From: Obrimoposthia wandeli
Lineage: Eukaryota
Assembly (NCBI GenBank): GCA_977020255.1
Contig: CDROCS010001625.1
Location: forward strand, 744,001 to 808,000
DNA: 64,000 nt
Direction of reading: 5' to 3'
Under the pieces are notes generated by a model. It was not told the DNA's origin. It worked only from the letters and a program-made list of their open reading frames with translations, and did no database searches. Shown piece by piece: positions 1 through 57,735 of this stretch. Position 1 is the stretch's first letter; every line of letters begins with the position of its first letter. A program made the position numbers and the translations under genes.

Positions 1-3000
1 TAACACTATTCTTCATTATTGCATCTAAATTTCAATAAAATACTTCAAACATTATCTTTAAAAAAATAGCATACCTAGCTTTGATTTTAATTGAAGGAAT
101 GTAGAAGGAATAGATAAAATGCTTAAATATTGGTTTTGGAACGATAATATTGATGACTTCGATAAAACTCTCTTTGAAAATAACTTATTTACTATGTATT
201 AATGAAATCGTTAATTTTCATTCAATGTCTTAATATTAATTGATTAAAAGTATTTTTTTAATGTCTAATGAAGATAGAATCCATTTATATGAACCAAAAC
301 TATTAATAATAATCATAAAGATTTCACCCGATTTTTTATAAAAATATGATGACTTTATCAATACTCAGAAGTTGTTTCTTTAAGTTTTCCTTAATACCTA
401 TTGACTTATAAGTAGCTATTTACAACATCATTGATTATTTTCAACTATAAAATCAATAATTGGGAATATGCACACTAATCGTTATTACTCAATATCTAAC
501 CTAAACCTCTAGCTTCTAATACTCTAATTCTAATATTCTAATTCTAACACTAACATCATTTATCAAAATATATGCGAAAAATTTACAAGAAGATGGTAAA
601 AGTTTGAATAATATCTCTGCTTTTGTAAAATTGTCTTCGTTATGACCGAAATATGAGTAAAATACTTATGATTAATTTTTGGTATAACTCGCTTTGAAGC
701 AGTATAAAGCTGAAATTCAATATGATCGCTTATATCATAATCTTAAATGAAATGACCGGAATTTTGATAAAATACGATTTCACTACAGTTTTAGAACAGT
801 AGTCTTATTTCCCTTCTAAACCACCTAAATATCTTCTAACTCACATTAAATTTCCTTTCAAAGTAAAATATATCCTATATTTTTTCTTTTGAATCCTACT
901 AACCTTATATACATCGCTTTTATTTTCATTCAATCTAGCTATCTAGGCTATATTTACCAAAACCTCCTAAACATCCCTGCTAAATCTTTTCTAAACCCTT
1001 CAAAGCTTTAATCTGAACCATCTAAACAAAATCGTTAAATTTCCCTCTAAAGTCATCTAATTTCTTCTTTTGAAACCTCTTGAACTTCCTGTTAAATCTC
1101 CCTCTAAATTCCTTTAATTTCTTCTGTAACCTCCCCATATAAATTCTCCTCTGAACCAATTTAAGTTATATTTCCTCTTCTGAAACCTCTTGAAATATCC
1201 GTTAAATCCTCCTTTTATCTCCTTTAAGGATATATTTTCTCTTCTGAACTCCTCGGTTAAATTCTCTTTGGAACCCTTTAATTTCCCCTATGAACAAATT
1301 TTAATTTCTTTTTTCTGAAACTTCCTAAATACTCTTTTTAAATACTTCTCTAAACGCCTTTTAAGGCTATATTTTCTGATACTTCCTAAACATTCCTGCT
1401 TAATCTTTTCTAAACCCTTCAAATATATAATATATCTTCTGAAACCTTTTGAACACTTTTTCAATTTGTCTTTTATAACCATTCTATGCATTAATATTTC
1501 TTCTATAACCTTCTAAATACCTCGTAAATTTCCTCTTCTATGTAATAAACTTCCTAAATTCCATTCCTAAATCTCTTAAATAAATCACATCAATTTCACT
1601 TCATAATTCAATCTAGACTATATTTTTGATACCTCCTAAAAGTATCGTTAATTTCTCCTCTGAACCGCTACTTATCTTTCTATGTATTAATTACTCTTCT
1701 ATAGAACCTTTTGAACAAATCGTGAGTTTCTCTTCTAAAACTCTATCCATTATTTTCTATTCTTAAACCTTATAAACACCCATGTCATATCTCATTTAAA
1801 TGTAACAAATCTCATGCATCTTCTTAATTTCTCTTATAGAACCTTTTATGTATAATTTCTTTACTAAACCGATTTATTTGAAGTAATAAATCAACTGGTT
1901 GTTGATGTTTGAAAATAAGTTTCCATAATATTGATAACATCAATAAGCTTGTAGAGTTTTGCAAGAATTTTCTTGTTTGATATATCGATCAATAAAAAAT
2001 TATGTTTTTAGAATATAGTTATCAATAGACTCAAGTAATATGAATAAATTATGACTGAGATAAATACATACTCTAAACATTATTGAATAAATTATATCAA
2101 TAAATGATACTTGAAAATAATTTTAGGTTTAAATGAATCGAAAGAGAGAATATAATTTAATCCATTTCTAGTCCTGATGTAATAATTTCTAAACAAAATG
2201 TTCCAATATAGTATTGATAATTTAATTAATTATTTATTACATAGATTAATTTCCTTAAATAAGCTAATCTTCAAACAATATTCTTTGAAACTAATCATTT
2301 TTTAGTAACAAAACTTTTACAGATTCTTTTACAAAAAAACTTTTTAAAAGAAAGTAGAGAACGTTTTAGATTTAATGAATCATTTTGAAAATTTAATAAA
2401 ATTCTTAGTTAAAGATGCAGATTAGTAATATACTCTTGATTGTAAATTGACTAATTGATCAAAGTAATCTCTCTAATTATCCGTATAATTGTCCGTAATA
2501 AACTCTCACTTATTGATCATTATATACTCTCTTCAAATTATATCTTTATTACACGGAGGAATCCTTTAAATATGTTGAAGATAAATCTAATTAGTGCATT
2601 TACCATATAAGAAACCATGAAAACCTTATTGACGCGCTGGCACATAAGAATCGTCAGTAAATACAACTTATTTGTTCTGAAAGTAATTTTGTCCTTAAAC
2701 TAAAATCAAAGAAAATTTATAGAAATATGGGTAAATTCATTGAAAAATGATCAATTATTTGCATTATAATTTGCATTATTCTAAAAATCCTTGGTAAATG
2801 TATTTTCTAATCTATAAATTGACTGAAAATCGAACTTTCTAATTCGAAATTTACATTATTCAGAAAAATTACACAGTAAATTCATTTGTCAACTAAAATC
2901 CTTATAAATGATATAAGATTCAACTTTGCATCTTAATTTACATTATTCTGAAATATACACGATATAAAGTATTCTAAATCCATAAATATAAACATAAAAT

Positions 3001-3033
3001 GATTAAAAATTGAACTTTTTAATACCAAATTAG
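1..3033. other. Unassigned decayed block (partial copy of 57736-61585)
   Basis: No intact ORF and no family motif recognised; contains a degenerate internal repeat. Confidence 0.6.
940..1740 (-). repeat. Degenerate repeat, possibly a decayed protein-repeat region
   Basis: Recurrent TTCTGAAACCTCTTGAA-like motif; minus-strand translations EFRGRFNRKFKRFQK, KGGFNGYFKRFQK, FRGEINDTFRRYQK, RRETHDLFKRFYRR. Also at about 59490-60295. Confidence 0.6.
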
Positions 3034-3125
3034 AATTTTTTTCTAAAGTGTCATAATGTAGACGTGCAAGCTACACTGTTGTCTGCAATGATTTCAGATG
3101 GATTATTAGACACATCAAAATTTTC
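3034..3125 (+). pseudogene. Short stub of pPolB lineage-2 C-terminal region, cut by deletion
   Basis: NFFLKCHNVDVQATLLSAMISDGLLDTSKF, nearly identical to 61586-61677. ORF 3064..3249 is a chimera with antisense penton sequence. Confidence 0.85.
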
Positions 3126-3126
3126 C

Positions 3127-3562
3127 GTTATCCATAATTCCGAAACCACATATTTTCCTTTATCAGATTTATTTGGAAATCCATACTGTTCTGCAATAAT
3201 CTCATCATTAAAAACTTCTTCAAAATTATCCCCTTGCTCCGCAATTTGAATTTTATTTTCTTTATTTAAAAGGTTGTGAAATCATCCCCTGCTTTAATAC
3301 GCTTCAAATCTAATCATCTCATATCAAATAGTAAAGTCATATTAGTTACTTTATCAGCTTCTTTTTGAGTTATATATTCAATCTCAGTTTCACTTTGAAT
3401 TGATAGAGGAGAGAAATTGAAAGAAAATTCCGTTAGTGCAGCTTCCCAAGCACCCAGTAAATTGATTGAGCTTTGATAATCAATACTAAAATTATTTGCA
3501 GTATTTTCCGGCTGAGTTAATGGTGAACCATCACTGGGTAATACAACATACATTGAACTCAT
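3127..3562 (-). pseudogene. Polinton/adintovirus minor capsid (penton-like) gene, 5' part
   Basis: MSSMYVVLPSDGS...NTANNFSIDY...LLGAWEAALTEFSF fits the Maverick minor-capsid N-terminal pattern (LPSxxS...NT..F...L.G.WE..L.E); lies directly downstream of the integrase; a stop and a frameshift follow codon about 82. Confidence 0.75.
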
Positions 3563-4654
3563 TCTGTTTGAGAAGCTAATATCCAACTAGGTTCAGTATA
3601 TCCGTGCCACTTAACTCGATATTATTTATGCTTTCCTCTCCCTTTTGTTTCTAAGATTTCATGAATTCTATATACATTTTGTTTTCAGTTAATACTTGTA
3701 ATTCTGCATGATAAAATTTACCGGTGATTTCATTATTGGTTTCATCCTCAATGAAATACATTACTGGTACATGTTTTTTTATCGATTTTAATTATACAAA
3801 ATACTTCATCACTCCAATTCTCTTTGAAATTCTTTATAAAAGGAGTAGTACTAATTTGAGAAATACGTACATAATCACCAATTTTTATACTTCGGTTTCT
3901 TTACAACTTGACTTTGATTAGCATTCCATAGCATTCTCATTTGTAACATAAACCGGTCTCTTTCCTTCTTATGATGAGTGTTCACTATGATTGTATGCAT
4001 GTATTATTTGAGATAAAACCGTGATCCAGGTCTTATTTCCCTGCTTAGTGAAATACTTTTTAAATCGATCTCTAAATGCTCGATTAAAACGTTCAACTAA
4101 AGAAGCTTTATATTGAGAAAATACTGAATAATGATTAATATTATGTTTTTTCAATAATGTACTAACATGTTTATTAAAAAACTCCTTTCCATTATCTGTT
4201 TGGAAATTTGCTGGTTTTATTCCTTTAATTATTTGCTTCATTGTCTCTAAAACCTCAGTACCGGACTTAGACGTTAATGGAATTGTTCTCGCGAATCTAC
4301 TAAAGACATCAATACAAGTTAAAATACATCGAAGAACGTCGTTAAAATTTGCATACGGAATCATTTCCATCAAATCTTCTTGCCATAAATCATTCGGGCC
4401 GCTCGTTTTGTATGATCTCGTTGGGAATCGACACCTCATCGGTTTGTTTAAGATGTAAGCTAATTGATTTCTCAACCATATTTGAGTTTCCCTTTCCTTT
4501 TCTTTGTCTCTTTTGTTAATTTTAAACTTTTGTGTAACCAACGGGATGACTTGGATCGAACCATATTTTCTCTATTACAAGACAATTTTATTTTTATATT
4601 TAATTTAAGAATAGATGGAAGTAAACCCATATAAAATTCATAATTTTGATTCAA
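3559..4654 (-). pseudogene. Polinton c-integrase (rve core plus chromo-like C-terminus), disrupted
   Basis: WQEDL...LTCIDVFSRF, FQTDNGKEF, ASLVERFNR (DDE core); downstream VRISQ...NWSDEVF and YRVKWHGY...SWI; several stops and frameshifts. Confidence 0.93.
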
Positions 4655-4679
4655 ATTTATATTTATAATACTCGTTTTA

Positions 4680-4996
4680 TTAGTCTACTAGCAAGTATAC
4701 TATCGAGCTAACAATCAGTACTAGAAATTTTAAAAATCCTTCAATTTGTTTATTCAGCAACTTACGTTTACCGACTCATATTTTAGAACGAAACAAAGTC
4801 AGTAAAGGTTTCTTATGTCGATTCATATTAGTCTTAGCAGATACTTTACCAGAAACTATTTTCTGTACCATATTAAGAACATCATCTATTACAAAAGTAG
4901 GAAATGATTTAAGAATAGTTTGGCGGCGAATAGCAGGTGCACACATAAGAGAATTGCAATAAGCAATACTCCTTGATTTCTTATTATGAGTACCAT
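4680..4996 (-). pseudogene. Small basic Maverick protein with amphipathic C-terminus (QxGGFL-type), disrupted
   Basis: Reconstructed MVLIIRNQGVLL/..MCAPAIRRQTILKS...HKKPLLTLFRSKI*VGKRKLLNKQIEGFLKFLVLIVSSIVYLLVD*; sits between ATPase and integrase as in many Mavericks. Confidence 0.6.
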
Positions 4997-5092
4997 TCTT
5001 TTCTGATTTGATTTTCGAGCTACCATTTTCCTTGCACTTAAAACTGATTTAATCAATTTCTTAACTTCAGTATCTGGTTTCTTTGATTGTTT

Positions 5093-5525
5093 TTAGACGG
5101 TAACTCCCGATGTATTGAATATATCGGTTCTAACTCTAATGTCATCAGGACAATCTTGGTTGAAATCAATTAAAATGTACCCGTAAAGAGCACTAATTGC
5201 ATCTTGAAATGAATCAATTAGATAATTTATATTATTCGGGAAAGCTTTCCATGAAACAAAATCTACAACAGTCTGATCACGCGGATTCTTGAAGAGAACA
5301 AGGTAATGTACATTTAAATTACGAGTTCTATGATTCCCATCCTGATGAAATAGATTTTGTGGGATTAAAATAACAGTTACTTCACGATGTCTTGCTATTT
5401 TAGTGAATAAATTATTGAAATCATTCTCTTTATTTGCTTCTTGATATAAATCATCAATAACAATAACATCATCACGTTGTAATCGCTCAGACAAATGATC
5501 ATCAAATCCATTATGACTTTTATAT
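5093..5525 (-). pseudogene. Polinton packaging ATPase (FtsK/A32-like), C-terminal half only
   Basis: VIVIDDL (Walker B), LFTKIARHREVTVILIPQNLF, NVHYLVLFKNPRDQ, YGYILIDF; Walker A region absent (junction near 5525). Confidence 0.9.
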
Positions 5526-5527
5526 TT

Positions 5528-6320
5528 TTTATTTTCTTAAACTCTTTACTGGTTAAGTTGTAAGGCTGCTGTTTTCGATGATGATTTTATTGTTATTAGA
5601 ACATTCAAGTTAAATAATTGTATTGAAAAGTACTCAGAATTGAGTAGTGGTTGGTCAATCCATAAAACATTACAAATTTCCTTTAAATGAACTAAATTAT
5701 CCAGTGTTTTGGGTTCTTCATACCAACACCACTTAAATGATTAAACACAATGGCAATAATCAATGTACAAACAGCAATAATAAATGTTTACTATATGCTA
5801 TCTTTAGTGTGGTAAAATATAATGAAGTTTTTCGTAGATATCGACCAACTTCTTATGAAAGATATTTAAATGAGTTAATATGTCAGCCGGATCCTATGTC
5901 CTTAGCCTCAATTCCTTAATTTGAACGTGATAACTAAATAGCAATTACAGTTTTTAAGTATTCTGAAATTAAATGTAAATACCCGATTAAAGATGTGGTG
6001 AAAAATCCTAATGTTAGTATAATTTACTGAACAAAACTACGGGATTGTAATCAAATTGCTAATTTTCTTTTGTTAGAAGACCATACCACTTATAATTATT
6101 GTAGTGTTCCTAATTTAAATATATTATTTAATTGTCATAGTTCTGGTTTACGACTTTACTGGTGTCCGAAATGTCTTTTTGGTTTTCAAAATGGGGCTTC
6201 TTATGATAAACATAGAACACTTTGTAATTTTAATACTGATACTACAACTTTATTCACTATGCCAGATAATAAATATTGTTAATTCACAGATTAGTCAAAA
6301 TCAGTTCAACCTCCTCATAG
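5528..6320 (+). pseudogene. N-terminal fragment of a second pPolB, opposite orientation to its neighbours
   Basis: WLSCKAAVFDDDF...KYSELSSGW, NNKCLLYAI, WCPKCLFGF...HRTLC aligns with WVISHKATVFYDNF...NYSELSSGW, DNLCFLYSV, WCHRCLHGF...HLTLC at 54750-55500; ends just before the Exo I motif. Confidence 0.85.
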
Positions 6321-6434
6321 AACCTGATCTGTTGCATCAATGATTCTTAAAACATCCTTTTCAGTAACAATTTTCGAGATGAAGCTCTTCGCCCCTTTGT
6401 TAACATATTGCTTGAAATAATTGGGAGTAGACAT
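6315..6434 (-). CDS. Small ORF of unknown function, probably truncated viral accessory gene
   Basis: MSTPNYFKQYVNKGAKSFISKIVTEKDVLRIIDATDQVL*; protein-like composition, co-oriented with the phosphatase, ends at the PolB-fragment junction. Confidence 0.3.
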   Translation of the reverse strand: MSTPNYFKQYVNKGAKSFISKIVTEKDVLRIIDATDQVL

Positions 6435-6528
6435 AATAATGAAGTAGAAATAAAAAGTAATCTGTTTATATACTATACAATTAAAATATGATTGGCTGCT
6501 GATTAAAAAAGATACTGACTCATAAAAT

Positions 6529-6939
6529 TTACATATGATAACGATTAAATATACGTATTTGATTAAGCATAGCTTCATTAAGAGCAACAATAATACTTTC
6601 AGCTTTAATAAGATTGGAAGCCCCAGTAACACCCATTGAAGGAGAAAAAATGCAATAACTATGCAAGCAGCATGTAAATTACCATAATAACCACACACTA
6701 AAATCTTACCACCATTTTGATAGTTTCATTAATTATATTATTAGTCTGTGTATAATATTTCATTATTTTCTCCTTATTTTGAGTTTACAAAAACATAAGT
6801 ATATTTTAATTTTGATAAAATATTTTATCCACTTAAGATATATTGATTACATAAGTGAATTTGATTTCAAAGGTTTAGCTTCATCAAAAGCATCTCGATA
6901 ATTACCAATATATAATTGATTTACTAAAATCTCTCTCAT
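6529..6939 (-). pseudogene. Dual-specificity protein phosphatase (DSP/VH1-like) pseudogene
   Basis: Reconstruction over 3 frameshifts and 3 stops: MREILVNQLYIGNYRDAFDEAKPL/EIKFTYVINIS*...KYYTQTNNIINET/QNGGKILVCGYYGNLHAACIVIAFFLLQ/MGVTGASNLIKAESIIVALNEAMLNQIRIF; colinear with the DSP pattern LYLGN..A...ITHVIN...GGKVLVHCxxGxSRSA..VIAYLM...NxGFxxQL. Confidence 0.8.
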
Positions 6940-8007
6940 TTTTGTTTAATTTTTCTACATTAAGTTGACTAAATCTAGCACTTAACCAACAATGAAAAAG
7001 ATGGGTCATGTGGTTCATTTCCATACGGGAAGCATGAGCTATTATGGGTTCCATGAAAGCCAAAGCATTTAAAAAACAACCCATTATTCTAGATTTTCCT
7101 AAATTATATTAAAACTTAAATGTAAAATAAATGATCAGATTTGAAAATTATAATATAATCTTCACACTTTAGTCGGTACTGGTGCGGCTTCAAAATGTAA
7201 AATGGTAAGTGTTGAATGTCGCTTACAACAAATCCCCTATAACTAATATTCACCAATTTGATATTGTGAAGTAATATTTCTGATTATTTTTATAATAATA
7301 TTAATAATGAATTGAAACTAAAATATTTCTCTATATACTCTTCCCAGATTAATTAATTTTATTGATGCAGTAAAACAAATTTTTTTCATTTAACTATGGA
7401 TAGTATAATAACATTTTGAATTAAATAAAATGAATATGATATATAATAACCTAGATAAATTGCCCTAATTAAATTTATATTATACATTATTTTAATTAAT
7501 TGACTTTTGTTTCAATAATCTAATTATGAAATTGATGTATTTAAACAAAAAGTCTTTATGATGAATAGTTCTTTTGTTACACACTTATTGGAAAAAATCT
7601 TTAACTAAATTTAGGAATATATATTATACTTATTTTTATAAGTAATTATTTTTGAAGAAAATAATTTTTGGAAAAAATATAAAAAGGTTTTCATCTACAA
7701 TTATTTTGGTAAAAATGATGTACAAGTGATTTAACATTTTTTTAATTATGGCACCAAATTTATTTTAAACATTCAACAAAATTTAATATATTTTTTTTAA
7801 ACTTTTAGGAAAAAATAAGGTTTTTTACCACTGAAGGTCCACATTCGAAGGTCCATTCAAGGTTTATCTATATCATCAAAAAGTATAAATTTTTAAATTG
7901 TTTGAAGGTTTTTGATCCTCGAAAGTTCAAACTCTTAAGTATCTTTTAGTAAAGACTGCATGTTAATAGGATGTCCTTTCAAAGTACTTGTCTAATATAG
8001 TAGATTT

Positions 8008-8196
8008 CGAATGTCAACGAATGTCAGCGAATACGTACGAATGTCGTTTGATGGATAATGACTCATCGATGAGTCATCATCCGTAACCGATGACATCATC
8101 GTCCTTTGAAATGAGTCACACTATAAGAGGAACAAAGACACCTATCCGTCGAACAGCTACTCTCTGCGTTGAACGTCTACTCTCGGGGTGGGGGGT
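8008..8196. other. Candidate Maverick terminal region
   Basis: 10-bp CGAATGTCAA-type repeat x4 (8008-8047), palindrome 8058-8077, CTACTCTC twice (8157, 8177) and a G-run; the same octamer occurs at 63038-63045. Confidence 0.45.
8058..8128. promoter_or_regulatory. Cluster of three AP-1 consensus sites and a TATA-like motif
   Basis: TGACTCA 8059-8065, TGAGTCA 8070-8076, TGAGTCA 8112-8118, TATAAGA 8122-8128. Confidence 0.4.
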
Positions 8197-8299
8197 CAAA
8201 TGTTATTGTTCCGAAAGACACTCATCACCATACTACAGTAAAAAGGGAAATGTAATATTTTGAAGAACAAAATATTCCAGAAAATTTTTAAATATTGTC

Positions 8300-8770
8300 C
8301 TAAAATATATTTCAACTGTTCAAGTAACTAGCGTTGAGTCGAAACGAGCTTTTTCTGAAGACGAGCCACCAAAGTCCGATCGATTTTAAGAGACGAAAGT
8401 TTGGATATTATGTTTTATTACGAGCTCATTTAAATAAAGTAAAAGAGCTAAATCTATAGAATATAAATAAGTTTATATTGTTTTATAAATTCATTTTATT
8501 TTGTATTGTGTATTTTTTATTATACGTTTAGTTTGTAATATGTTTATTTTTGTTATTTATGTTTTGTAATTAAAAATTGAAATAAGTGATTTTTTCTTTG
8601 AATAAATATATTTGGAATTATTAGTTTGCTTTCTTACTTATTCATTCTTTTTTTTCTAATATTTTTCGCTTTTATACTATATATTTAAGTTTTATTACAG
8701 ATTACTAGAAACTTACCAGTTAACCGATTTTTACCAGAAAATTTACCGAAAATCGGTATTTTATAATTCT
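8300..8770 (+). mobile_element. hAT transposon 3' remnant
   Basis: VTSVESKRAFS resembles the hAT dimerisation motif TSVxSERAFS, followed by LRDESLD; subterminal ACCGA-type repeats near 8715-8765. Boundaries approximate. Confidence 0.6.
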
Positions 8771-10532
8771 TGTAAATTTGTGACTCCTAGTAATAAGTGT
8801 AGCGAATTATTATTGCATAAATATAATATGTAAAAATTTATTTATTGTATCGGAACACTTAAACAAAATATTTTATTGTAATTTTTTATTCTAATGAATC
8901 TTATATTTTTGTTGTTTAAGATTTATTTGGATAAATTAATAAATGATTAAATTTTGCATAATATTCGTAAATTATCATGTTGAGAAAACAACGATATTTA
9001 TACATTACTTAAAGATGACAACAGAGTTCAGAAGTTCAGTACAAAATGCATGAGGTCCTAAAAGGGACAGTTAAAATAAAACAAGAAATAAAATGGTCTT
9101 TATTTATAGTCCTGGTCAAGAACATGTTAGAGAACGAATATTAAATTAAAATTATGAGTTTAATATAAAAACTAATATTGAGACAAAGGGCAGAGTTTAA
9201 TAAAGTCGATTAACCTCAGGTCACCTCCAAAGCACGTATAAGAGAGATTTACCTGAGACAACGACGAATGAGTTCATAGTCTGCTAGGACAAAGAGAAAA
9301 AATTTGACGCTATGAATAATAAAAGTGAATAATTATTCAATTATAATCAGAATTTTGATGTTGTAGAAGAACACATGCCATGAAGCAACGTTTACAATTA
9401 GAAGACGATTAATCAAGCCACAGAAACCGTTGTGTGGAGCTGTACACAAGTAGAAGTCACGAAGGATGGGAGCAGTGAATGTTTAGGTAATTAATAGATC
9501 GACACGGAAAGAATGACTTACAAAGAAAATAATTGATGACACTCACTCAAAATTCTGAAAAATCAATTTTTCTAACAGTTGGAATCGAACCATGAAGGCG
9601 CGTGAGATTATTAATTTTGTGTTGAATTTGTTCCCCTTATTTAGACTAAAATCACTTTTTTAAATCAAAATATAAACTAAACAATTTCAAGTATCTTATT
9701 TGGCATTTCTTGCTATGTCAATAATAAATACAGATTAGTGTTTTTGATGGTATTCAGTTTTGGTAGTCCACCAAAGATGAATATTTCAAACAACAAAATA
9801 AAACAACTTGAAAAAATGTTTGGTTATAATTTAAAAACCTTGTCAACAACATTTTAAAATTTATATGCAAAATTTTTTTATCATAACTATTGGAGAGTTG
9901 GAGCAACTAGCATCAAGTTGCCTTTTCAGAATGTCCGTCTTCTTAACTTTTCAGAAACCTTTGATGACGTCAGTAATGAGAAAAGTGAACGATCCCATAG
10001 TCAGAATAAAAATATCAGAGTTAATATAATGTATATATGATAGCCGACGATTTTTTGAACATCAAGCGAGATTGTGATTGAACACTGAAAAAAAGTGTAA
10101 TTTTTTACTTGCACACAATTAGATTTACATAAACAATATATTTTGCATGACCAAATAAGTTAAGAAATATTACAATTAAGTCAAATTTTCCCTTGTATGT
10201 AAATTTATAAAGTAATCGCAAATTTGTAATATATTGTATTATTTATTGTATTTGAGATAGATGGTGATTATTCAGTAGCTAAAAACGTTGATTAGAGTAA
10301 TGTTTTGATTCGAATGCCAAAAGTTAGACAAAATAAGTGCATTTAATTAACTCAACAAAATTTGTGTTATTTCAATTAATAAAATAAAATTTGAAAAAAC
10401 AGCCGATCATATGAATTTTCTAAATATATATATGTATTATTTTCACTTGTTTAAATAAATAAATTTCAGCAACTTCCTTTCACACTTTTTTGACTAACAT
10501 CCTTTTTACGTAAATATTTTGCAATTGAAATT

Positions 10533-10618
10533 ATGGCATCAAAGGATACAACAACAAGTATTTATTTTCTTTTTCTATGATATAATATATTTAGCTAATG
10601 AAAACGAGGAACCAGTTA
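10533..10618 (+). CDS. Candidate first two exons of the host coiled-coil gene
   Basis: ATG 10533, exon 10533-10557, 37-nt GT-AG intron, exon from 10595: MASKDTTTTNENEEPV; link to downstream exons not established. Confidence 0.3.
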
Positions 10619-12299
10619 GTTATATAATATTATTTTTTAAATTTCTTGATTTTGAATGTTTTATTAAACGGTTATACCAAGATGAAACAATATCGTTTTA
10701 GTCTATTCTATAACACTTCTAGCATTACGATAGTGAAATATTTGAAAACTTTGATTTACTTTATTAATGATATAATTTTATAATGGAAAGTTACTTTTGA
10801 ATAAATATATTCTTAAAGTGAAAAAGCTACAATACTGTTGACAATGAGATATATACAAACTATATTGCATCAAACATTTTTCAAAATTTCCTGTCTATGA
10901 ATGCTGTTGACAGCTCTAGGCTAGACTTACAAGTCATTGTACAATTTCATCTAACAGATTAAAAGTAATTATGAATAAATCAATAAGGAATATTTATAAA
11001 TTATGTAAAAAAGAAAAGGGCTGAAAATCTCTATATTTTTACTACCCAATAATAAATAATATTATAAATTATATTTCTGTTGTTAATTCTAAAGTTAAAT
11101 GAATCGATTAAAAATATTGCATTTCGGATTGATGAAAATTTAACAAGGACAAAGCAAATTAACACTTTAATGAAAATGTTCAACTTTCAACTCAGTAAAA
11201 TCAAAAAAAATCGTCAGTATCTATCTAATATGTTGTGATGGCGAATTCTGTTATCCAATGCTTATAAACCTTCCAAATAAGCTTATACATTGTTTACAAA
11301 TCAATCCAAACAAATTCGTACGATTTTTTCCAGGTTAAATAAAACTGAATCATTCACACAATATTTAAGTTAACTATATTTTTATCTATAATTCATTAAA
11401 AAGTACTTAAGTGATTTGTTATTGATAAAAACTTCTAAAAGGCAAATAAATTTCAAAAGATAGCTTATTAAAAAAAGTATAATTATATAATCAGTATTCA
11501 CTTCGTCTGAGAAATAACAAGAATTACAAAATACATTAGAAAATGTTCCCGTTCAAGAAGTTTTATGTTGAAACATAATTGAAAAAAGTAAAGAGTGTAT
11601 TTTGAAAAGTTGTTAATAGCTGTATCCTTGAGCTATATTACGTAATATATGTCGTTGGTTATATTGCGTAACAGTGTATCTTCATTTTTAAAACAAAGCT
11701 TGCATTTCTCAGATATGTTCGTAGTTGAACTTAAATATTTTAAAGATAAATAAGAATCAATGTTTGTTAAAATTGGTTTTACAGAAGGAAGTAAGGTTGT
11801 ATAAAGAAACATGATCAACGTTGAATTATTGGGAATACATTCGACTTTGATTTATGTAATATGACTGACGATGTTTATAATTAGTTCAATTAGCTTCAAT
11901 TGTTTTATTTACCAAATTCCCATTTTTATTTTTACCTTATTCAGAATGTTTTTAGAAATGAATGAGTAACTTTAAAAAAATCTCAATTTTAATTATTTTA
12001 AAGTTGTCTACAAACGTAACGTTAGGTGTAACAATGTCTTATGTATCTCTATCACTATATATTCCTTAGATATATGTTTATCCATGTTTATTCAGTATTT
12101 TTAGATATTTATTGATGTCAGCAGCTAGCGAACTTACCTAGATGATTTTTCTACTACACAGTTTAATACAATTTACTTAAATATAACTTGAATGGTTCAA
12201 GTCAACGTAGTAATGCGTGTTCAAATTGATAAGTTTTACAATTGATTGAGTTTAGAACTTAATGTTTTGATTAATATCGAAAATGTATAAGACTACTTT

Positions 12300-12621
12300 T
12301 ATGTCTTTGCTATGAAACCGAAATCGTTTATTATTAATGTCGTTGTGATGGTTCTCAAGTGTTGATTTTAAATTCAAGCGCTACATTCGTTCGGTTATAT
12401 AGCTTAAGTGGTTCTTAACTTATACGTTGTAAAAGCTTTAGGAGACATTTTTCAATGCTTGAGCATATTTAAGAGATTGAAGCAAACTTTGAATTGTTTT
12501 ATAAAGTATTCTGCAGTTTATTCAACTTATCTCACACATTAAATGGGTACACTTTGTATGATTCTTCATTGAAGTCACACGAGTTAATGCGCATGCCGAG
12601 TGATCCATTTTAACTAAACAT
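12300..12621 (-). pseudogene. Decayed copy of an unidentified coding sequence (paralog of 18840-19055)
   Basis: MFS*NGSLGMRINSCDFNEESYKVYPFNV*DKLNKL aligns ungapped with MLTKNGTPGIRIKSCNFNEEKYETYPLKFENKLRAL. Confidence 0.6.
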
Positions 12622-13685
12622 TTCCTTAAATAATACTTGATAAATAACTTTCTATTCGGTTGGGATAGTGTAGGAATTCCTGTGGGTTTAACCTATGGGA
12701 TTTGGAGCTATATCCATTATGGTGCGATTGTTTGAAGAATTTTTAAAATATTTTCATAGTAATAATTAATTTTTTAAAATTATATTTTCGTTGGGAAAGT
12801 TTTAGCGGTGCTTACATGTAGCAAGTCACTACCGTTTATATCAATAGTTCGACAAGTTCTTAGGAAATTTCATGAGTTTCTTCATCATCATCATCTTTAT
12901 TGTAGTTAACCAGGAGTTACTTGATTTCAAGTCTACATAATCCATCTTCGTTTCATAGCTGCGAGAATTGATTTTCCCTTAATCTATCTTCTAACTTTCT
13001 TTGGATTCCTTTGATATTTTCTTGCAGTACCTTTGCTTTTATTTGGCTCTTGCGTTTCATTAACAATTGGTGGTTTATCACGTTCACAGTATGATTTTCG
13101 TTGGATTGGAAAATATTAGTAAAAATATAAATATTTAAACAAACGGGGCCCATCTAAGCGAAAAAGATGGTTACTTAAATGAAGTAATGGAACTTATACA
13201 TAAGCAGGGCTTATCTACATGATATTAGGGTTGTGTTAAGTAAGTTACACATTTCATTCATTCATCAATCCATATTTTTATATTAATTAATCATTTTATT
13301 GTCAATTTCCATATCATAAAATTTTACATTAACAGTATCATCTTTAGCGATGCACTCTTGCAAATTTGCCAACTAATAACAAAACCTTAGCTGTTGTAAC
13401 TGATTGTACAACAAATTTGTATTTAGGTTCAGCGTGTTGAAATATTGAATATTATATTGTTCTGACAAAATTAATGACAACTTAAATATAAATATGTTTA
13501 GCGAAATTATTAAATTACCTTTGAAGTTTCCTCGAAAACGTTAAATATGTGTTTAATTCGATATTTATTTTTCAATTCGATAAAACTATATTGTCAATTA
13601 AATTTTTATTAGTGCCAAGACTTTATGGCCGTACTAATATTGTAGAAATTGTGAGTTTTACTTAATCGTGATGCTTCCCATTCAG

Positions 13686-13711
13686 ATATCGGGGGTCAGT
13701 GATAAATCCAG
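13686..13711 (+). CDS. Candidate micro-exon of the host gene
   Basis: TTCAG acceptor, strong CAG/GTAAGT donor; the YRGSVINP frame ends in phase 1, compatible with exon 18445. Confidence 0.4.
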
Positions 13712-13869
13712 GTAAGTAGTTAATAAGGATTCATATTTATTCTATACAGCTAAATATCTTAATACACCAATCCAAAAATGAAGTAAATCGAAATGTAAAT
13801 CACAGATCTGAATGAATTTTACGCGATTCAGTTGAATGATCAATTTAGAATACTCTCACTTTGCGTTAT

Positions 13870-14240
13870 CGTATTTACCCACAGTTAAGACGCACCGAAA
13901 CATCGATTTATCAAATCCAAAATGTGGGGTTCTTAGTATATGCGGGTATTTCATAAATATATTTTAAAACTATTTTGCTGAATACGTAATATGTGAGTGA
14001 AATTGAATAAATCAAATACCTTACCTAAGGGAAGCCATTAGTGTGCAAATATACCTAGGTAAAAATTGTATGGAGCGCAAAAATATCATTCATTACCTGT
14101 TTCTTTGTTATAATTAATGTACAATATATATTAATAACTGTTATCTTACTGTTGTTCATAATGACTTTTATTTTGTTGAAAAACTATCTACACCTAAAGT
14201 AGGGGTGCGTACTATGCGCGGGGCTGATGGTAAATATTTT
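13870..14240. mobile_element. pogo-type terminal remnants
   Basis: TAAGACGCAC, GGGTGCGTACTATGCGCGGG and TATATGCGGG resemble pogo subterminal motifs like those at 20430-20510. Confidence 0.35.
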
Positions 14241-30400: not shown

Positions 30401-33400
30401 TTTAAATCTATATCAAATACATTTTATAAATCCATTTCTAATTTTAACTCGGTCACATTTAAGTAATTTTTAATCACTTATTTACTTATTTACTCACTTA
30501 CCAAGAATTTTCAAATGCCTCGTACATCGTGTTCCGTAATATCAAAAGTACAAAAATATGCGAAGGACCATCCTAAAGAATTTGTTGTAACACCAAAAGG
30601 AGATTTTTTTGTCAATTTTGTAACCAAATCATAGGGTATGATCGTCGTTTATCTGTCTTAAAACATCTTTCAACATCGAAGCATGTGAAAGAACTTCAAA
30701 ATTGCAGTGGCACATCTAGGCAAACATTCATGCCTCCTAGTTCGACAATGCGATTTCAATGAGAGACTAATACGAGCATGGTTTGCAGCTGATATCCCAT
30801 TACATAAGTTGCACAACAATGAGCTACGAGAGCTTTTCTTATCTTTGGGACAACCACTTCCTTCGGTGACTACCTGTCGAACGTCTGTACTTTCTCTAGC
30901 AGAAGAGGAAACATTGCGAGTACAATCTTTAATATCTGAAGCTCCTTTTTTCCCGTAGTTGATGAAAGTGACCTTAACGGTAACAAATATTTAAATATAC
31001 TCATTGGCCGTCTTGACACACCATAAAAAAACATATTTATTGAAGTGTACACCGTTAAATGAAAATTGCAACCAATTTACAATTATTCACGCTGTTGATG
31101 ATGTTGTAAAGCAAATAAAATCGAATAGATTTAACTTTTTTCTTTTATTAACCGACACTGCTTGTTATATGACAGCAGCTGGTTTGGCACTTAAGCACAT
31201 TTATCAGAGGTTATTCCATGTAACGTACATTGCTCATTTGCTTCACAACTGTGCTGAAAAGGTCCGAACATTTTTTTCAAGGGTTAATGAACTTATTGCC
31301 AGAGTTCAAGCGGTCACTAGAAAATGCAAGCGTCGACGAGAAGAGTTTTCTTCCATAGGTTATCCTCCACTTGCTGGGCATCCTGGCTACAAGCTTCATT
31401 TTATTATTACAATAATTTACCATTTGTTAGGGAAGTTGTAAGCTGCTGGAAAGGTGATGGACTCATAATCATTCATGCGATTTCATCTGTCAATGTAGCG
31501 AACCTTCGCGATCTGCTTCATATTAAAAGATGTTATGAATGCTTGGCAAAATTAGTGGTCAAATGCGAGTCAACTACTTACAGCATTCGGGAAGTTTGTA
31601 CAATTCTTCATCCTTTAAACTTCGATGAAGACCCTTGCAATATTCGGACGTATGTAAATTCTCGGATCTTCAAGAATCGCGGATTCAACGATATAATGAC
31701 GATGAATCGAGGTGAGATTTCACCGCCATGGTACGAGCTTCTACAGTCTTTCAACCAACATCTGCATCGGTGGAACGGAGTTTTTCATTGTTGAGAAAAT
31801 TGTTATCAAATTACCGCAATTTTTTGCCGTCAAATGTGGAAAAATACCTAATTCTTTACATAATAAGAAATATAAATGTTTTGTTGTTCTGAAAGCGATT
31901 AATTCGAAAAAATTGAATTTTGTAAGCATAGTGCTTAAATGAATAAATAATAAAAAAATAAAAATTATAAATGCAACTTTTTCGATTTTTAAGCGCAACT
32001 TTAGATCGCCCTGTCATTACTCTCACATGTATTGAATAACTTAATCTTATGAAATTAGAAAAGTACTATATTTAATTTTTTTTGCCATCCAATTTTTTAT
32101 TTTTAAGGTATAATTTGTTTTGGGCCAGACCAAATCTATCAACGCCATTTCTTTACAATTTATATTAATAAAGAAATTGACACTTAAGTATCCGGATGTG
32201 TTTTTCTAGCATACTTTATGTGGTTTGCTTGGAAAACAAATCACAATTGCACCCCTTGAAAATATCGTTGCAAATGTATATACAGCTCTGCGTCAGAAAT
32301 TAGCAAAACTGAACAAACATTGTACCTTAAATTTTGTGATTATCTTATGATAATAAAATAATACATTTAGAATTTAGTGAGAACGTAATTTTAAAAACCA
32401 TGTAATTAATTTCTATTTTTTATGATTTTAAAATTTCAATTAAATATGATTATTTCTGGAATATTAATTTTATCCATACTATGATATAAAATAAGTTAAA
32501 CAAAATTGTATATAAAGCGTTTAATAAACCATTATAAATGTTTATTTAAAATATCGTGGGATATTCCTAAAATTGAAAAAAGTATAGTTAATAAAGTTCT
32601 CTTTATTTATTTGTCCATAGGTTGGTAATATAGATGAATATAGTGTGATAGAGCTGTATAACATTTACAAAAATATTTAAGCCTAAGATTTACTTTCATA
32701 GTCTAAAAACTACTTTTATTATGCTAGAAAACTACACCCGGATAAATTAGAAATGAATGATGATGATAGTCTATCAGCGATGGCTTTGGTGTAGTGCAGA
32801 ACAACACATTGATTAGAATTTACGTTGGAACACGCATTTTAAGTATATTGTTTTTAAATGATTTTTTAGCTTCATACATTTGGACTTATACATTTTGGAA
32901 TTTTGATGTTTAGTTGATGGAGTAAATGCTAATGTCATTCAGTTCTGATGGGCATGGTATTTGACTAGCTTTGCTCTTGCGCAATCCCTAATTATATTCT
33001 TTACCATGTTTCTTCGGCGGACTCATATTACACCAAAAATCAGCAATTCGAAAGTCAGTTAAGTGTTCGATTTTCAAAACTTCGAAACTTAGATTTCAAA
33101 TTTCCTAAGATCGAAAAGTTTTTTTTCCACTTTTTCATTTCACCGAAGTATTTTTTGATTTTTGTGTAAATAGAATAGAAAAGCAAAATATAGTTTTTAA
33201 ATAAAGTAAATCGAATTATTAAATTAAATTTTTTTCTTCTTTTCTTCTCATTTATTATCATAAAAAAATTTGTTGTTATAAAATAGTTACATTTGATGTT
33301 ATGGAAATTTAAAATTTATCTTTCGAAGTTATGAAAATTGTAAAATTAACCGACTTTGTATGTATAATTTTTGGTGAAATAATGACGTTTTTCTGGACTT

Positions 33401-51791: not shown

Positions 51792-53940
51792 ATGGTGAGT
51801 GTGTCACGCAAATCATATGATTTCCCTGTGTTTGGTGTCGTTTCTGATTTTAAATCAAACCAATTACCAACTGATGCTGACGTTATCAAATCAACTTTGT
51901 TCAAAAAAGGGCAGTTAAAAAATGAAACACGAAAATATTTATCCATTAAAGACACTTGCAATACATTGGCTGAAAGAATTTCACAATTGTACGGTAGTGC
52001 GTCCATTCCTAGTGTAATCGTTAAACAAATTGGAGAAAAGTACTATCCTATCATAACAAGTATCTAACATTGATCAAACCCTATACAGCTTGGTGCAATA
52101 TGGAAAGTCATAAACAAAAACCTGATAAGGCTCGGGAAGACTCAAAAATGTTTTTACTTTTCATCGTGTAAGTTCTGTAATTTTTACTCATGTAACTGTC
52201 CTAAAGAAAAGAAGATTCCAAAAATTAAGCAGGAGTTTCTTTCTGACCAGTGTAATGATCAACTAATGTTCATTGGTTTAGTGGACGTCAATGTCACAGA
52301 AAAACTGCAGAAAATATTTGCACGTGAAGCAGTGTCAGAGCCAACAAGCAGTAAAATAAGTTTTGAAACCATTTCTTTAAAAATGACTGTACCTTAACCC
52401 ATTAACCGCCAAGCTTAAAATAATGACTGAAATAAAACGACTTTTTTACTGTAATTTATTTATACCAAACTGGAAATATTTGCCAAATATGATAACTGAA
52501 TATTTTCTCGTTTGGTTGATAATAGGTGTTGCGTTTTAGCAACATTGGCGTAAAGTGTGAACACATTTTACAAAAATAAGAAAATTACCAATTGAGTTCT
52601 CAAGTGGATATAAAAAGTGTTGAACATTGTATTAGCTGTATTTATGTAAAACAAAACATACAAGTCTTAATGCATGAACATTTACATAGTTTATTTATAT
52701 ACAAGTAACTACCTAAAGGCATAAATGTCAACAAGGAAACACAAAGTGCAAACTTTATAGATAATTGAAATGTAATGGATATCAATGCATGTATTTATGA
52801 TGGAGTTATTGAGAAATGAAGTAGGTATATAATTAAATACAGGTCAATATTTACAATACACGACTGTGATATCTGTCAAAGCATTTTGAATGCACTCCAA
52901 ATTTACACCCTTTGGATATAAAAATAGTCTGAGAAAGGCATTGTCTACATCTGAGTCGCTTATTATTTTTGACAACAGAATGTTAAGTCATTGATGAGCG
53001 AAGATTCTGTTTGTGTATAGCAGAAGTAGGGCCTGGTTGATGAGTTCATCTTTTTGAAGTATTATCGAGACGTGATTTAAATGTAGAAAGCAGTTGACCA
53101 ATTTTTTTAAAAATATAGCATAGTATAAAGCTTATGAATTACGTTAATTCTTAGAAAAAAAAATTATAAAGTTTAATAGACATTACATTATATAGAAAAA
53201 AATTACATTTAGGACCAGTAAATAAGGGCTGTGATTTGAGAAAACAGTTAAATATAAAAAATCAGTAAAATAATTAATCAATTTATTTGAATTTCTGATG
53301 TAGTTATAGACACATACAGATTAAAACAAAACTGAAAAAAATCAACAAATAAGCAACAAACAGTTATTTATGTAGTGTTGTGAAAATGCAACATTGGCAG
53401 TAAATGGGTTAAATAGTGAATCTGACTTAGAATTTATCCCACCGAAAACAATATTAAAAAGTCTTCATTTGATGACAATTTTAAAGGTGAAAGCAGCTCA
53501 AAATTTCCGGCGTCCAAAAATATCCAAGACTCTTACTAATTTTGCTACTGCATATTTCCGTTTTGAGTCCTCTGATCGTGGTACAGCTTTATTCACTTCC
53601 TCTTTATTAGAAGATTTTTCCATCACTGAGTCAACCATTGAATCTACAAATATTATCCTTAACAAAAATAAAATACATCGTGAAAGATCCAAGAGCAGAC
53701 TGAACATAACAAAGCAAAAGTCTGTCTCTCAGATGATTAGTTTTATTTCGATGGTAAGAGAGATATCACGTTAATTGATGAGAAGAGGCAACAAGATTTA
53801 TAGAAAGAAGATTACAGAAGAACACATTTCAGTTATTTCTGAACCAAACTCTTAATATGTGGGACACTTCACAACAGGATCTGGAAGTGCTCGAAGAATC
53901 TATCGCGATATCTTGCATTTTATGTACGACACAGTCCCTT
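51792..53940 (+). mobile_element. DDE transposase pseudogene, tentatively hATm-like, interrupted by piggyBac
   Basis: QLPTDADVI...ASIPS, CNCPKEKKIP...FLSDQ...MFIGLVD, SDRGTA...SSLLED, FYFDGKRD, EEHISVISEP..YVGHF; superfamily assignment is from memory of motif layout. Confidence 0.7.
52398..53408 (-). mobile_element. Internally deleted piggyBac element
   Basis: TTAA|CCCATTAACCGCCAA ... TTGGCAGTAAATGGG|TTAA; interior encodes RCRQC...GCKFGVHSKCFDRYH, the piggyBac Cys-rich C-terminus. Confidence 0.93.
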
Positions 53941-54714
53941 CCTCTTGAGCCTTTTTGAGGCTTTCATTAACAAAATGGAGATTATATTATAAAAAATTAT
54001 GTATTATAGATATATGCGACGTTTGTCATCCTTTGCATTTCAAATTTAATGTAGATATCCGGTTTAGGTCTTTAGATTATAAGAAGAAATTTACTAATTT
54101 ATATCTCACTAAATATTTTCATTTATTAAAATAGAAAGAAGGAAATAGGTATATTTGTGAAATATGTATTTTCGATACAACTAAATCTAATTTTGATATT
54201 GAAAATGATTTTTTTTATGTTTTAGATGAAATAGATGGCAAAATGGATAAGATATTAAAATTTTTTTTTCTAAAATTGAGATTGAATACATTAAATATTT
54301 CACGTGATCATCTATTAAAATTTCCACTCACTTTTTTCCTTTCAATCCTCGATTTTTGAAATAATGAAGAAGAACTTTATTTTTTAATAATATTTATTAT
54401 TTTAGATTACTTGTAACCTGTTTCCAGCGTATTGTGCTGCTTCGGCTCCACATGGAGGAGATTCCTGTATGACGATAATTTCTGCCTACTATTGAGTAAA
54501 GTCTTATGGATAGGTGTATTATATCAGCCAATTATGCTGAACTATGGAAGACAAGGAGTTTGCAGCTTTCTTCAAGGAACATCGGGATCACTTGTCCTGC
54601 TTCACGGCCAACAACAAGAAGAAGACTATCGTCCAATTGGTGCACGATTTGCTTATTTGTCTAGCTCAAGCTCCAGTTCCAGCTTCTGCGGTTACCTATC
54701 ACCCAGTGCAGCAG

Positions 54715-57700
54715 TGCAGTTTAAAAATGTCAATGAGGAAACTAAAACTTGGGTAATTTCACATAAAGCTACTGTTTTTTATGATAATTTTGTAACTGAA
54801 ATTGGAAGAAACCTGGATGAAAAAATTGCTAATTATAGCGAGTTAAGTAGTGGATGGACTCTAGTTAGAATTCACGATGTTAGCTTTGTTCTAACAAAGT
54901 TCTCTGACATGATATATCTTTCGGGGAGTTAATACATTCCTTCACCTAGATCTCTTCAACTTTCACGTTCCATTGTTAACGTACAAAACAGTGATAACCT
55001 TTGCTTTCTGTATAGCGTGTAGGCCATCCTCAAAAGGGATGTAATTACTGAGCATAGAGAGCGTGTCAGTAAATATACCCCTTTTTTAAATGAATTGCAG
55101 TATCATGGAATAGATTTTCCTATTAAATTAACTGCGATATCAAGATTTGAACATCTTAATAACTTGAGTATTAATGTATTAAAATATAATACTGATATCC
55201 CAGTTAATGTAACAGATGAAGAAATTTTAAAAAATCCTTTTGTAGATGTAATTTATAGGAGTAAAAATGAGGGGACTCAGGTCAACTTAATTTTGCTCGA
55301 ACATAATAAAAAATTCCATTATGCTGCAATTCCCAATTTAGATCGTCTTCTAAATTTAGATAATGGAGCCTTACCGGTTAGGATAAGGTGTAAGTGGTGT
55401 CATAGATGTTTGCATGGGTTCCGATCCGAGCTCTCTTACAGCAAACATCTGACATTATGTTCACTGAATCCTGATGACAATACGTTATACACCATACCTA
55501 AGGATAAGGATTTAAAATTCAGGGATTGGGCAAAATGCATACCCGTGGAATTCAGGGTGTATGCAGATTTTGAGTCAATTTTAGCATTGTACGACCAGTA
55601 TGAGAGTATTCACCTACCGGCTTCGGCAGGACTACTATTCTTAGGCCCAATATTACCCAGTATCATAAATTTTCCGGTCCAAATTGTATTTTAGATTTCA
55701 TGTTAAAATTAGAGGAATTAGGAACAACAATTGTCAAACCGTGGTATGATCTCAATGCTCATCAAGCAATGATCATGACAAGCATAGACTGGGTTAATTT
55801 TAATTCTTGTAGATTATGTTATTTGTGTAGAACCCAGTCTAATTTAGTCAGAGATCACGATCATGTTACGGGGCGATACTTGGGAGCGGCGTGCAACCTT
55901 TGTAACCTTGGCCGTCGTCTCCCTAAAAAACCACGCATTCCCATCGTGTTTCATAACCTCAAAGGATATGATTTGCATCATATACTTAAATACGCATTGG
56001 GTACATTAAGCTCTTGGGAAATTTCATGTATACCTCAAACTTCAGAGAAATATTTATCTTTAACTGCATATACTGAATTCTGCAGTTTAAGATTCATAGA
56101 TTCTCTGCAGTTTTTGAGCGGGTCTTTAAAAAATTTAACGGCATCTTTAAATGCATGGCCAATTACACAGTCAGTGTTCCCAGCTTCGGTTAACGATAAC
56201 AGGATTTTTCCGTATAAATTTGCGAAAACCTTTGCAGATTTAGAAAATACTACAGAAATCCCACCACAAAATGGAATTTGAGGGTGTAAGTCTTGAAGAC
56301 TATAATGAGGCCCTTACATTTTGTGCGAATAATTGTCGAAATTTTTTAGAATATATGCTTTATTATATGAAGTTAGACATTTATCTTTTAGCTGATGTTT
56401 TTGAGTCCTTTCGTGTAAAATCTTTAGCAGAAGATGGGCTAGATCCCATGCATTTCATTAGTTTACCTGGTCTTTCATGGGCAACAGCAATAAAAACTCT
56501 TAAAATTAATATCGAGTTACTGCAAGATCCCGCGATGTATCAAATGTATGATTATGGTATACGCGGTGGAATGACTTTTGTCAACAAAGATCATGTTGTC
56601 AAAAATCAATCCACGGAGATTTTGTACATCGATATTAATATTTTGTATGGGTGGGCGCTTACTCAACCTCTACCTCATGCCAACTTTAAGTGGGTTTATG
56701 ATGTGGATCAGTTGAATAAGTTGATGACAGATTTGGCTACTGTTGATACAGTTTCATCCGACGTCGCTATTTGGTTGATGTGGACATAAAAATCCCTCCC
56801 AATGTGCATGATAAATTAGACGATCTTCCAGTAGCGCCTGTTCATCAATGCTCACCTAATTCAAAGGTTAAGAAATTATTGTTAACCCATGAAGACAAGT
56901 TGAATTATGTTGTGCATTGGCGGCTTCTTCAATTCTACTTAAAGTTGGGAGTGAAAGTTACTCGAATTCATCGTGCTATAAGCTTCAGTCAAAACTTTGT
57001 GTTTAAAGACTATATTGAGAAGAATTCTAGAAAACGTAATTTGGCCACTAGCAAATTCGATCGAGATTTTTACAAGTTAAAAAGTAATAGTCTCTTTGGA
57101 AAAACTGTAGAGGACTTGCGGAAACGTATTTGTCTACGGTTTTGCAATGATGAGCGTAAACTAATAACATATACTAGCAAGTACAACTTCAAGCGTAGTT
57201 TTACAATTGCAGATGCCTTGGTAGCAGTGTTATTAGGAAAACAGAGTATTTGTCTCGATCGACCGAGTTATATAGGTCAAACAGTTTTAGACATTTCTAA
57301 ACTCAGAATGTATGAGCTTCAATACATAGAATTGGAGAAATACCGACAAGAATTTAATTGTGAGATTAAAATCGCAGCTGGGGACACTGACTCTTTCTTT
57401 TTAGAATGTAGGAATGTTAGTTTAAATAATCAATTATTACCAGCAATGTTTAGGGACAACTTACTAGATACCCATAAATATACCGCTAACCATCCTCAAC
57501 ACTCTATGAGTTTAAAGGACATTATTGGGAAATTTAAGGATGAAAGCGAGGGACAGGTTTCGTATGATGATTGTATTTTCCTACGCCCTAAATGCTACAG
57601 TTTACATGCATCTAATAATACATGTTCAATGAGAGCAAAGGGTGTGGGAAGAAACAATCTTACACATGAGGCATACCGAAAAAATAATGATACTGGGTGT

Positions 57701-57735
57701 ATTGAAAGCGTTGAGCAAACTAGATTTATACATGT
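54715..57735 (+). pseudogene. Near-complete protein-primed family B DNA polymerase (pPolB lineage 1) of a Polinton/adintovirus, frameshifted
   Basis: YSELSSGW, YADFES (Exo I), RDHDHVTGRYLGAACNLCNL zinc insert, FHNLKGYD (Exo II), LDIYLLADVFESFR (Exo III), GIRGG, YIDINILY (A), KLKSNSLFGKT (B), GDTDS (C), GKFKDE, RAKGV; extreme C-terminus lost. Confidence 0.96.

Follow-up and report, generated by a model that had tools for sequence, protein, structure and literature searches.

What is a broken dual-specificity phosphatase (DSP) domain doing among the genes of a Maverick element? The question is raised by positions 6529-6939 of the window, by which we mean the whole 64,000-nucleotide stretch of the Obrimoposthia wandeli contig analysed here. 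The first-pass annotation had described this piece as an intronless domain of ~135 codons with three frameshifts, carried as Maverick cargo between Maverick genes and a terminus-like region. In our six-frame reading of the minus strand (6939-6529), DSP-like pieces are spread over three frames, and four of four intact relatives match the Pfam DSPc family, confirming a DSP remnant. The proposed size was close (138 codons); the three frameshifts became five deletions plus two stops. The features of the window around this remnant, hereafter called the pseudo-DSP, are as follows.

3132..3586, minus strand: presumed minor capsid gene, 5' half; labelled by its position, no Pfam match
3640..4648, minus strand: rve integrase, broken; rve E 4e-13 in the window
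4683..5092, minus strand: basic core-like protein, broken; weak Adeno_PX match in an open copy, E 0.005
5075..5556, minus strand: A32-like packaging ATPase, 5' part lost
5557..6315, plus strand: N-terminal PolB fragment of another Maverick family, inserted in opposite orientation; 35-41% to family-1 PolB
6327..6498, minus strand: spacer with a TATA-like word and the 5' remnant of a small ORF of ~94 aa
6529..6939, minus strand: pseudo-DSP domain, broken copy; 138 codons in open copies; five deletions, two stops
~6672..6698, minus strand: dead P-loop motif V-C-G-Y-Y-G-N-L-H, in the register of V-H-C-x-x-G-x-S-R
6940..7076, minus strand: N-terminal extension of the same ORF, remnant of its conserved part; promoter, start and Ser/Thr-rich tract deleted
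7077..7288, minus strand: TBP-like gene, 5' piece; an internal deletion joins it to the pseudo-DSP; Pfam TBP found on open copies
7600..7665, no strand: 69 terminal-repeat-like bases, 75% to the family's terminal repeat; weak

Relative to a natural open copy, the frame-breaking deletions (1-2 bases each) lie near 6863, 6812, 6767, 6718 and 6645, and the two stops are in register. One contig of run X3, which may be the source sample, spans 6720-6892 without gaps, which means that the three deletions it covers do not stem from misassembly. At the junction near 7076, the promoter, the start and the Ser/Thr-rich tract are gone, and the window copy is therefore dead. The family motif is V-C-G-H-Y-G-S-L-H, and the Y and N of the window copy are later, rarer changes. 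Broken window pieces matched Pfam in 0 of 3 cases. The terminus-like region of the first-pass annotation did not stand: upstream lies a truncated TBP-like gene (7076-7288), and only the 69 bases listed above resemble a terminal repeat. A 99% duplicate of the window copy is located just beyond the window, as part of an 11-kb duplication. Window positions 3127-14032 recur ~60 kb on (63099-64000 onward) at 99.2%, which is either a segmental duplication or an assembly artefact. Elsewhere in the window, 53376-57769 (plus strand) holds a broken exonuclease-like gene and a PolB of another Maverick family, ~45% to family-1 PolB, and 30995-31794 (plus strand) holds a transposase-like remnant with a weak DUF659 match (E 2e-5, under the cut-off).

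The genome contains many other copies. The DNA pattern encoding C-G-H-Y-G-x-L-H gave 2,527 exact genome matches, and the reversed control gave 0. The first 30 motif matches by contig order served as an unbiased set, comprising 26 copies of family 1 and four of family 2; a DNA search of the same genome yielded 1,853 candidates; scoring covered 40 of these, and 30 sequences were retrieved. Open domains were present in 13 of the 26 unbiased family-1 copies and in 18 of 28 similarity-picked ones, and the natural open copies are 88-89% identical to the window copy in DNA. In every one of the 26 unbiased family-1 copies, the packaging ATPase gene lies no more than 1.5 kb away, which argues against the refuting alternative named by the first-pass annotation, a host retrocopy never linked to Maverick genes, and a TBP-like gene is near the pseudo-DSP in 22 of the 30 unbiased loci.

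Complete family-1 elements measure 13.6-14.4 kb and carry terminal inverted repeats, with both ends seen in two of eight regions. Their gene order is an unknown ORF, IAP (BIR and RING), a single-repeat TBP-like gene, pseudo-DSP, small ORF, ATPase, core-like gene, integrase, presumed minor capsid gene, amphipathic peptide, major capsid gene, exonuclease-like gene and PolB; in a full-length element, the pseudo-DSP lies ~3.9 kb inside the end. The polymerase is a protein-primed family B enzyme (DNA_pol_B_2, E 3.7e-10 and 5.6e-9), the integrase of the C1260 element matches rve at E 2e-13, and the ATPase matches Pox_A32 above the cut-off (E 2.5e-6). The major capsid protein resembles DJR-like clusters in the Atlas (0.97), with a recognition value below the tool threshold and no Pfam match. 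The terminal inverted repeat of the C305 element is ~590 bp; the C1260 element ends in AGTAGG on both sides, and its flanking 6-bp target duplication matches in 5 of 6 positions. By the left terminus of the C1260 element (577-1062, opposite strand; L070:3435-3923), we also observed a lysine-rich ORF of 162 aa with no Pfam match.

This anatomy is that of Mavericks/Polintons and adintoviruses as given in the accessible text of PMC8502044: the same PolB, rve integrase, A32-like ATPase, double-jelly-roll capsid, terminal inverted repeats and IAP. The elements here differ from those adintoviruses by the DSP-fold gene. For the adenovirus-like cysteine protease, a common but not universal Maverick gene, the scanned ORFs gave no Pfam match and five elements no credible motif. 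The string 'phosphat' is absent from the main text and one supplement of PMC8502044. In the literature searched, we found no phosphatase-family Maverick cargo, an entry that Repbase, figure-based gene maps or Grohme et al. 2018 could hold; in one paper that mentions Polintons, accessory genes and a phosphatase, the phosphatase belongs to fungal Starships. Another Maverick family of this genome has TBP followed by ATPase with no DSP between them (3 of 3 loci), indicating that the pseudo-DSP is a lineage-specific gain. The pseudo-DSP is thus a fixed accessory gene in one Maverick lineage. The single-repeat TBP-like protein (L062:740-1273) is under strong selection and occurs in at least two Maverick families of the genome. 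Old, diverged TBP-like and IAP remnants also adjoin at L209:1290-1911 and L210:7060-7822, where TBP precedes IAP, an order opposite to that in family 1.

The domain forms the C-terminal part of its ORF, which reaches ~240-282 aa in the longest copies and consists of a Ser/Thr/Pro-rich tract of variable length (29-77 aa in 24 copies, measured up to a fixed anchor), followed by an acidic stretch, then a conserved part of ~55 aa and finally the 138-aa domain. The natural open copies match DSPc end to end, covering positions 1-131 of the 133 of the model (E 2e-13 to 2.5e-9; 37.5-50.6 bits, cut-off 33.5). AlphaFold2 with a 76-row alignment including active DUSPs gave a DUSP fold at pLDDT 93.4, whereas a model from the single sequence failed (pLDDT 32.5); the confidence in the fold therefore comes from the alignment of active DUSPs. 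In Foldseek, the model reached TM 0.82-0.89 to DUSP19, DUSP22, MKP5 and STYX. The atypical DUSPs (DUSP19, DUSP22 and the MKP5 catalytic domain) are the best PDB matches in sequence and structure, and the Atlas features agree (0.93 to DUSP19-like clusters); they differ in being active enzymes and only 25-28% identical. The sequence search of PDB placed DUSP19, DUSP10 and DUSP22 on top and STYX lower. The N-terminal rhodanese/CH2 part of MAPK phosphatases (MKPs) is absent, and full pseudo-DSP ORFs of 239 and 264 aa gave no Pfam match to a rhodanese domain. A basic word in the tail, K-R-R, resembles a MAPK docking site; its information content is too low for it to count as evidence.

The active site is where the gene departs from an enzyme. 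The first-pass annotation left open whether the motif was decayed or that of a pseudophosphatase; both are the case, as the window copy is broken and the motif is dead in 54 family-1 copies. The register of the catalytic sites follows from an alignment to active DSPs that contains no gaps. In the 54 copies, the nucleophilic Cys site is Gly in 53 and Ser in one, the phosphate-binding Arg site is His in 53 and Asn in one, the general-acid Asp site is Ser in 53 and a stop in one, and the signature His site is Cys in all. The catalytic Cys, Arg and acid Asp are missing from every copy, and so is the H-C-x5-R signature of active dual-specificity phosphatases, which the first-pass annotation had proposed to look for in intact copies linked to PolB and integrase; both of these genes are present in full elements. 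By comparison, Cys and Arg are in register in 135 of 152 aligned subjects (150 global matches and two retrotransposon domains), and shifted gaps account for many of the remaining 17. Family 2 has the same dead motif in 29 of 30 loci, indicating that the common ancestor of the two families had already lost catalysis. Judged by these residues, the pseudo-DSP is a predicted pseudophosphatase family-wide, and the window copy is additionally decayed.

Two readings would keep a use for the pocket. In the first, the protein would keep an atypical catalysis that uses the invariant Cys one position ahead of the usual nucleophile, a Cys that family 2 has as well. However, the gap-free alignment puts this residue at the His position, C-x5-R occurs in neither register and the acid Asp is missing, making such chemistry very improbable. 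The second is a trap, in which the pocket binds and shields phosphorylated residues like a substrate-trapping mutant; the P-loop Gly, invariant across the 76-row alignment, is in its favour. STYX, however, retains the phosphate-binding Arg, the site that has become His here. MK-STYX also retains it (FSX5R), as the accessible text of PMC8622459 has it, and the Cys-to-Gly change common to the pseudo-DSP and STYX (PMC8622459) is the other point for a trap, which we hold to be improbable. With the Arg lost, a decoy acting by its surface is likelier than a phosphosite trap.

STYX and MK-STYX (PMC8622459, accessible text) are nevertheless the nearest known type: they have the same DUSP fold without the catalytic Cys, and STYX has Gly there, as does the pseudo-DSP, which matches STYX (PDB 2r0b) at E 5e-8 in sequence and, as a model, at TM 0.88 in structure. 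The pseudo-DSP differs in lacking the Arg, His and acid Asp as well and in being borne by a mobile element. It is no nearer to STYX than to active DUSPs, pointing to an independent loss, and it is not a STYX orthologue as judged by Gly for Cys, a kept Arg and STYX kinship taken together.

If the gene is a pseudophosphatase, is it still maintained? Compared with one another, family-1 copies give dN/dS values on either side of 1, which is what neutrality after insertion predicts. Family 2 is ~78% identical to family 1 in DNA and is a palindromic non-autonomous element in which the pseudo-DSP gene is broken in 30 of 30 loci. In two examples (L073:2569-10000 and L118), its arms measure 2.5-3.2 kb and are 98.8% identical; the middle piece holds a broken TBP, a broken pseudo-DSP and an often-open ORF of ~95 aa, and window positions 1-3125 are one arm of such an element. 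Between the families, dN/dS was 0.37-0.45 at dS ~0.34, with eight of the 30 family-2 copies used. For the one family pair and 111 of 138 codons (27 were dropped for gaps or disagreement), fixed non-synonymous and synonymous changes were 26.2/18.8 and singletons 98/27, a ratio of 0.38 (p 0.011); the unbiased set alone gave 0.43 (p 0.046). The same ratio was 0.17 for the TBP-like gene and 0.38 for the small ORF (p 0.065), so that the signal of the pseudo-DSP is weaker than that of the TBP-like gene. As far as codon changes can tell, this shows purifying selection on the pseudo-DSP after the loss of catalysis, between two families that both have the dead motif.

These data bear on the possibility that a captured phosphatase died once and was amplified along with the element as a functionless passenger. 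The internal dN/dS, the multiplication of family 2 with its gene broken and a very long branch leading to the pseudo-DSP (2.0 changes per site) would all fit. However, the depletion of non-synonymous change between the families does not, neutrality inside a family is expected anyway, and family 2 is only a non-autonomous derivative. Moreover, the frame, the fold and the TATA box outlasted ~60-70% amino-acid divergence from any active DUSP. We therefore give a mere passenger little credence, and the pseudo-DSP is very probably a selected pseudophosphatase cargo.

The promoter word TATATAAG stands 33-36 bases before the starts of IAP, the pseudo-DSP (33 bases) and the small ORF, and occurs only four times in a 14.4-kb element. 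TATATAA is kept in 24 of the 32 pseudo-DSP copies that retain the start. A different word, ATAAAC(A/G), is found upstream of the ATPase, core, both capsid, exonuclease-like and PolB genes. The upstream words TATATAAG and ATAAACA split the element's genes into two classes.

The strongest competitor is that the protein is a structural or replication component of the element, such as a virion part or a partner of the TBP-like protein or IAP, instead of a host modulator. Selection and the dead site fit this equally well, since a structural role would give the same selection signal. Poxvirus VH1 is packaged in the virion, and the PTP of a silkworm baculovirus reportedly works as a virion protein without its activity. 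Against this, the pseudo-DSP has TATATAAG like IAP and the small ORF, not the ATAAAC(A/G) of the virion and replication genes. In addition, the sister family without the gene indicates that the pseudo-DSP is dispensable for the core cycle. A structural component thus appears unlikely to us.

The best explanation, to which we assign a probability of about 0.55, is that the pseudo-DSP is a selected, non-enzymatic decoy or adaptor acting on host signalling, a reading based on analogy. Taken separately, action on host signalling would be moderately probable for a selected pseudophosphatase cargo. The gene would be, as the first-pass annotation proposed, a host-signalling modulator, one that presumably cannot act as a phosphatase. 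The box before its start, like that of the neighbouring IAP, suggests that it would probably be transcribed early by the host machinery. With Asp, His, Cys and Arg read as Ser, Cys, Gly and His, the protein would be unable to remove phosphate, and without the Arg the trapping of phosphosites would also be improbable. Its conserved surface may instead compete with host DUSPs for stress or MAP-kinase partners, by analogy with STYX, which competes with MKP-2 for ERK (PMC8622459, accessible text). Such a decoy might help IAP to keep the host cell alive and permissive. The missing MKP rhodanese domain counts against MAP-kinase partners, as does the precedent of MK-STYX in the same text, according to which a dead DUSP need not touch MAPKs.

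We then asked where the domain came from. HMMER searches against 1.84 billion representatives gave 981 matches at E<=0.001, the best at 63.3 bits, and identities were 23-38% among the 150 matches listed, indicating that the pseudo-DSP has no close relative among the representatives. A word-index homologue search with the open ORF found 0 of 368 candidates related, and scans of viral and metagenome contigs found no relative among 27 and 501 pattern matches. The first-pass annotation had pointed to poxvirus VH1 and baculovirus PTP. These, with PTP2, are likewise virus-borne genes of the PTP superfamily, and PTP2 needs its activity (PMC5923475, accessible text). A kinship with them was not borne out: viral proteins matched by structure reach 26% identity at most, which does not exceed the level of cellular DUSPs, and a DSP from an LTR element reaches 39%.

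This LTR element resides in the same genome. It is 19.8 kb long and encodes gag, a fusion-type env, BIR, RING, protease, RT, RNase H and integrase in one frame of 4,633 aa, which ends in an intact DSP (HCxKGISRS) and a second, degenerate DSP domain. In the element at G000:C399:422,591-441,844 (L109-L112; also L113-L116), the LTRs are 99% identical. Its anatomy fits that of Burro, a type of giant Ty3/gypsy LTR retrotransposon, as described in the accessible text of the review PMC6431247, which makes no mention of a phosphatase in Burro; such an anatomy would point to a flatworm host. Of 14,213 DSPc candidates in the genome, 150 were scored, and all 30 fetched were this Burro-like element. An older Burro-like family (171 candidates) is the best pairwise match of the pseudo-DSP, at 77.2 bits compared with a maximum of 62.9 for the global matches and with 39% identity. 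The Burro-like element differs from the Maverick in the state of its domains, the first intact and the second degenerate.

Phylogeny gave a divided answer. Three free trees did not join the Maverick DSP to the Burro DSPs, while an IQ-TREE AU test with 33 rows was compatible with such a grouping (p 0.21 and 0.23). When the domain was split post hoc, residues 1-45 scored 113 against Burro (global mean 55, maximum 89), and residues 84-138 scored under the global mean. Placement likewise put the N-terminal half on Burro branches, the best three of 57, whereas these ranked 47-57 for the C-terminal half and 16-57 for the whole domain. With the trees undecided and the C-terminal half against it, a shared origin of the two phosphatase domains stands at about even odds. 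Shuffle tests (p 0.29-0.98) led us to reject a kinship between the N-terminal tail and the sequence that precedes the DSP in Burro.

The IAP is a different matter. The Maverick protein (L070:1612-2610) and the Burro BIR-RING region (L110:3775-4914) align over 380 columns at 32% (E 5e-53; 160.8 bits), and the homology is whole-length, including the last residues and a linker outside Pfam, which alone gives E 5e-12. The Maverick IAP scored 68.5 bits against cIAP1 and 41-44 bits against the two host BIR genes found, although an intron-split host IAP could be missed. Judging from these alignments, the IAP is clearly common to the Maverick and the Burro-like element. Mavericks were already known to carry anti-apoptotic genes, IAP and Bcl2 being reported in adintoviruses (PMC8502044, accessible text).

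A host DUSP on C934 (L211) has an intron of ~6.3 kb, and its last exon shares 58% identity with the DSP of Burro-A; the gene is a candidate donor of the retrotransposon's phosphatase. Burro DSP groups with this intron-bearing host gene in two trees (90/83 and 94), a grouping absent from the backbone tree with both host exons. Among host-type motif matches, 30 of 47 were inspected. The same gene as the direct source of the Maverick domain, by retrocopy, is not supported: it is 24.8% identical to the Maverick domain and 45% to Burro-A.

The shared IAP points to gene traffic between a Maverick and an LTR retrotransposon, and the neighbouring DSP may have followed. More tentatively, and with the odds somewhat against it, the Maverick and the env-bearing giant LTR retrotransposon may have swapped IAP and DSP, the Maverick making its DSP a dead decoy. 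If so, the host would harbour a single signalling module in an active and a dead form, each in thousands of copies, seated on two unrelated classes of element and possibly acting in opposition. To date, bracoviruses are the main source of described viral pseudophosphatases, and their CvBV_22-9 acts by binding; this is a precedent, but a classical PTP and not a DSP (PMC12912956, accessible text). A selected, high-copy dead DSP would give experiments a way into the question of how an integrating DNA virus-like element deals with the cell it inhabits.
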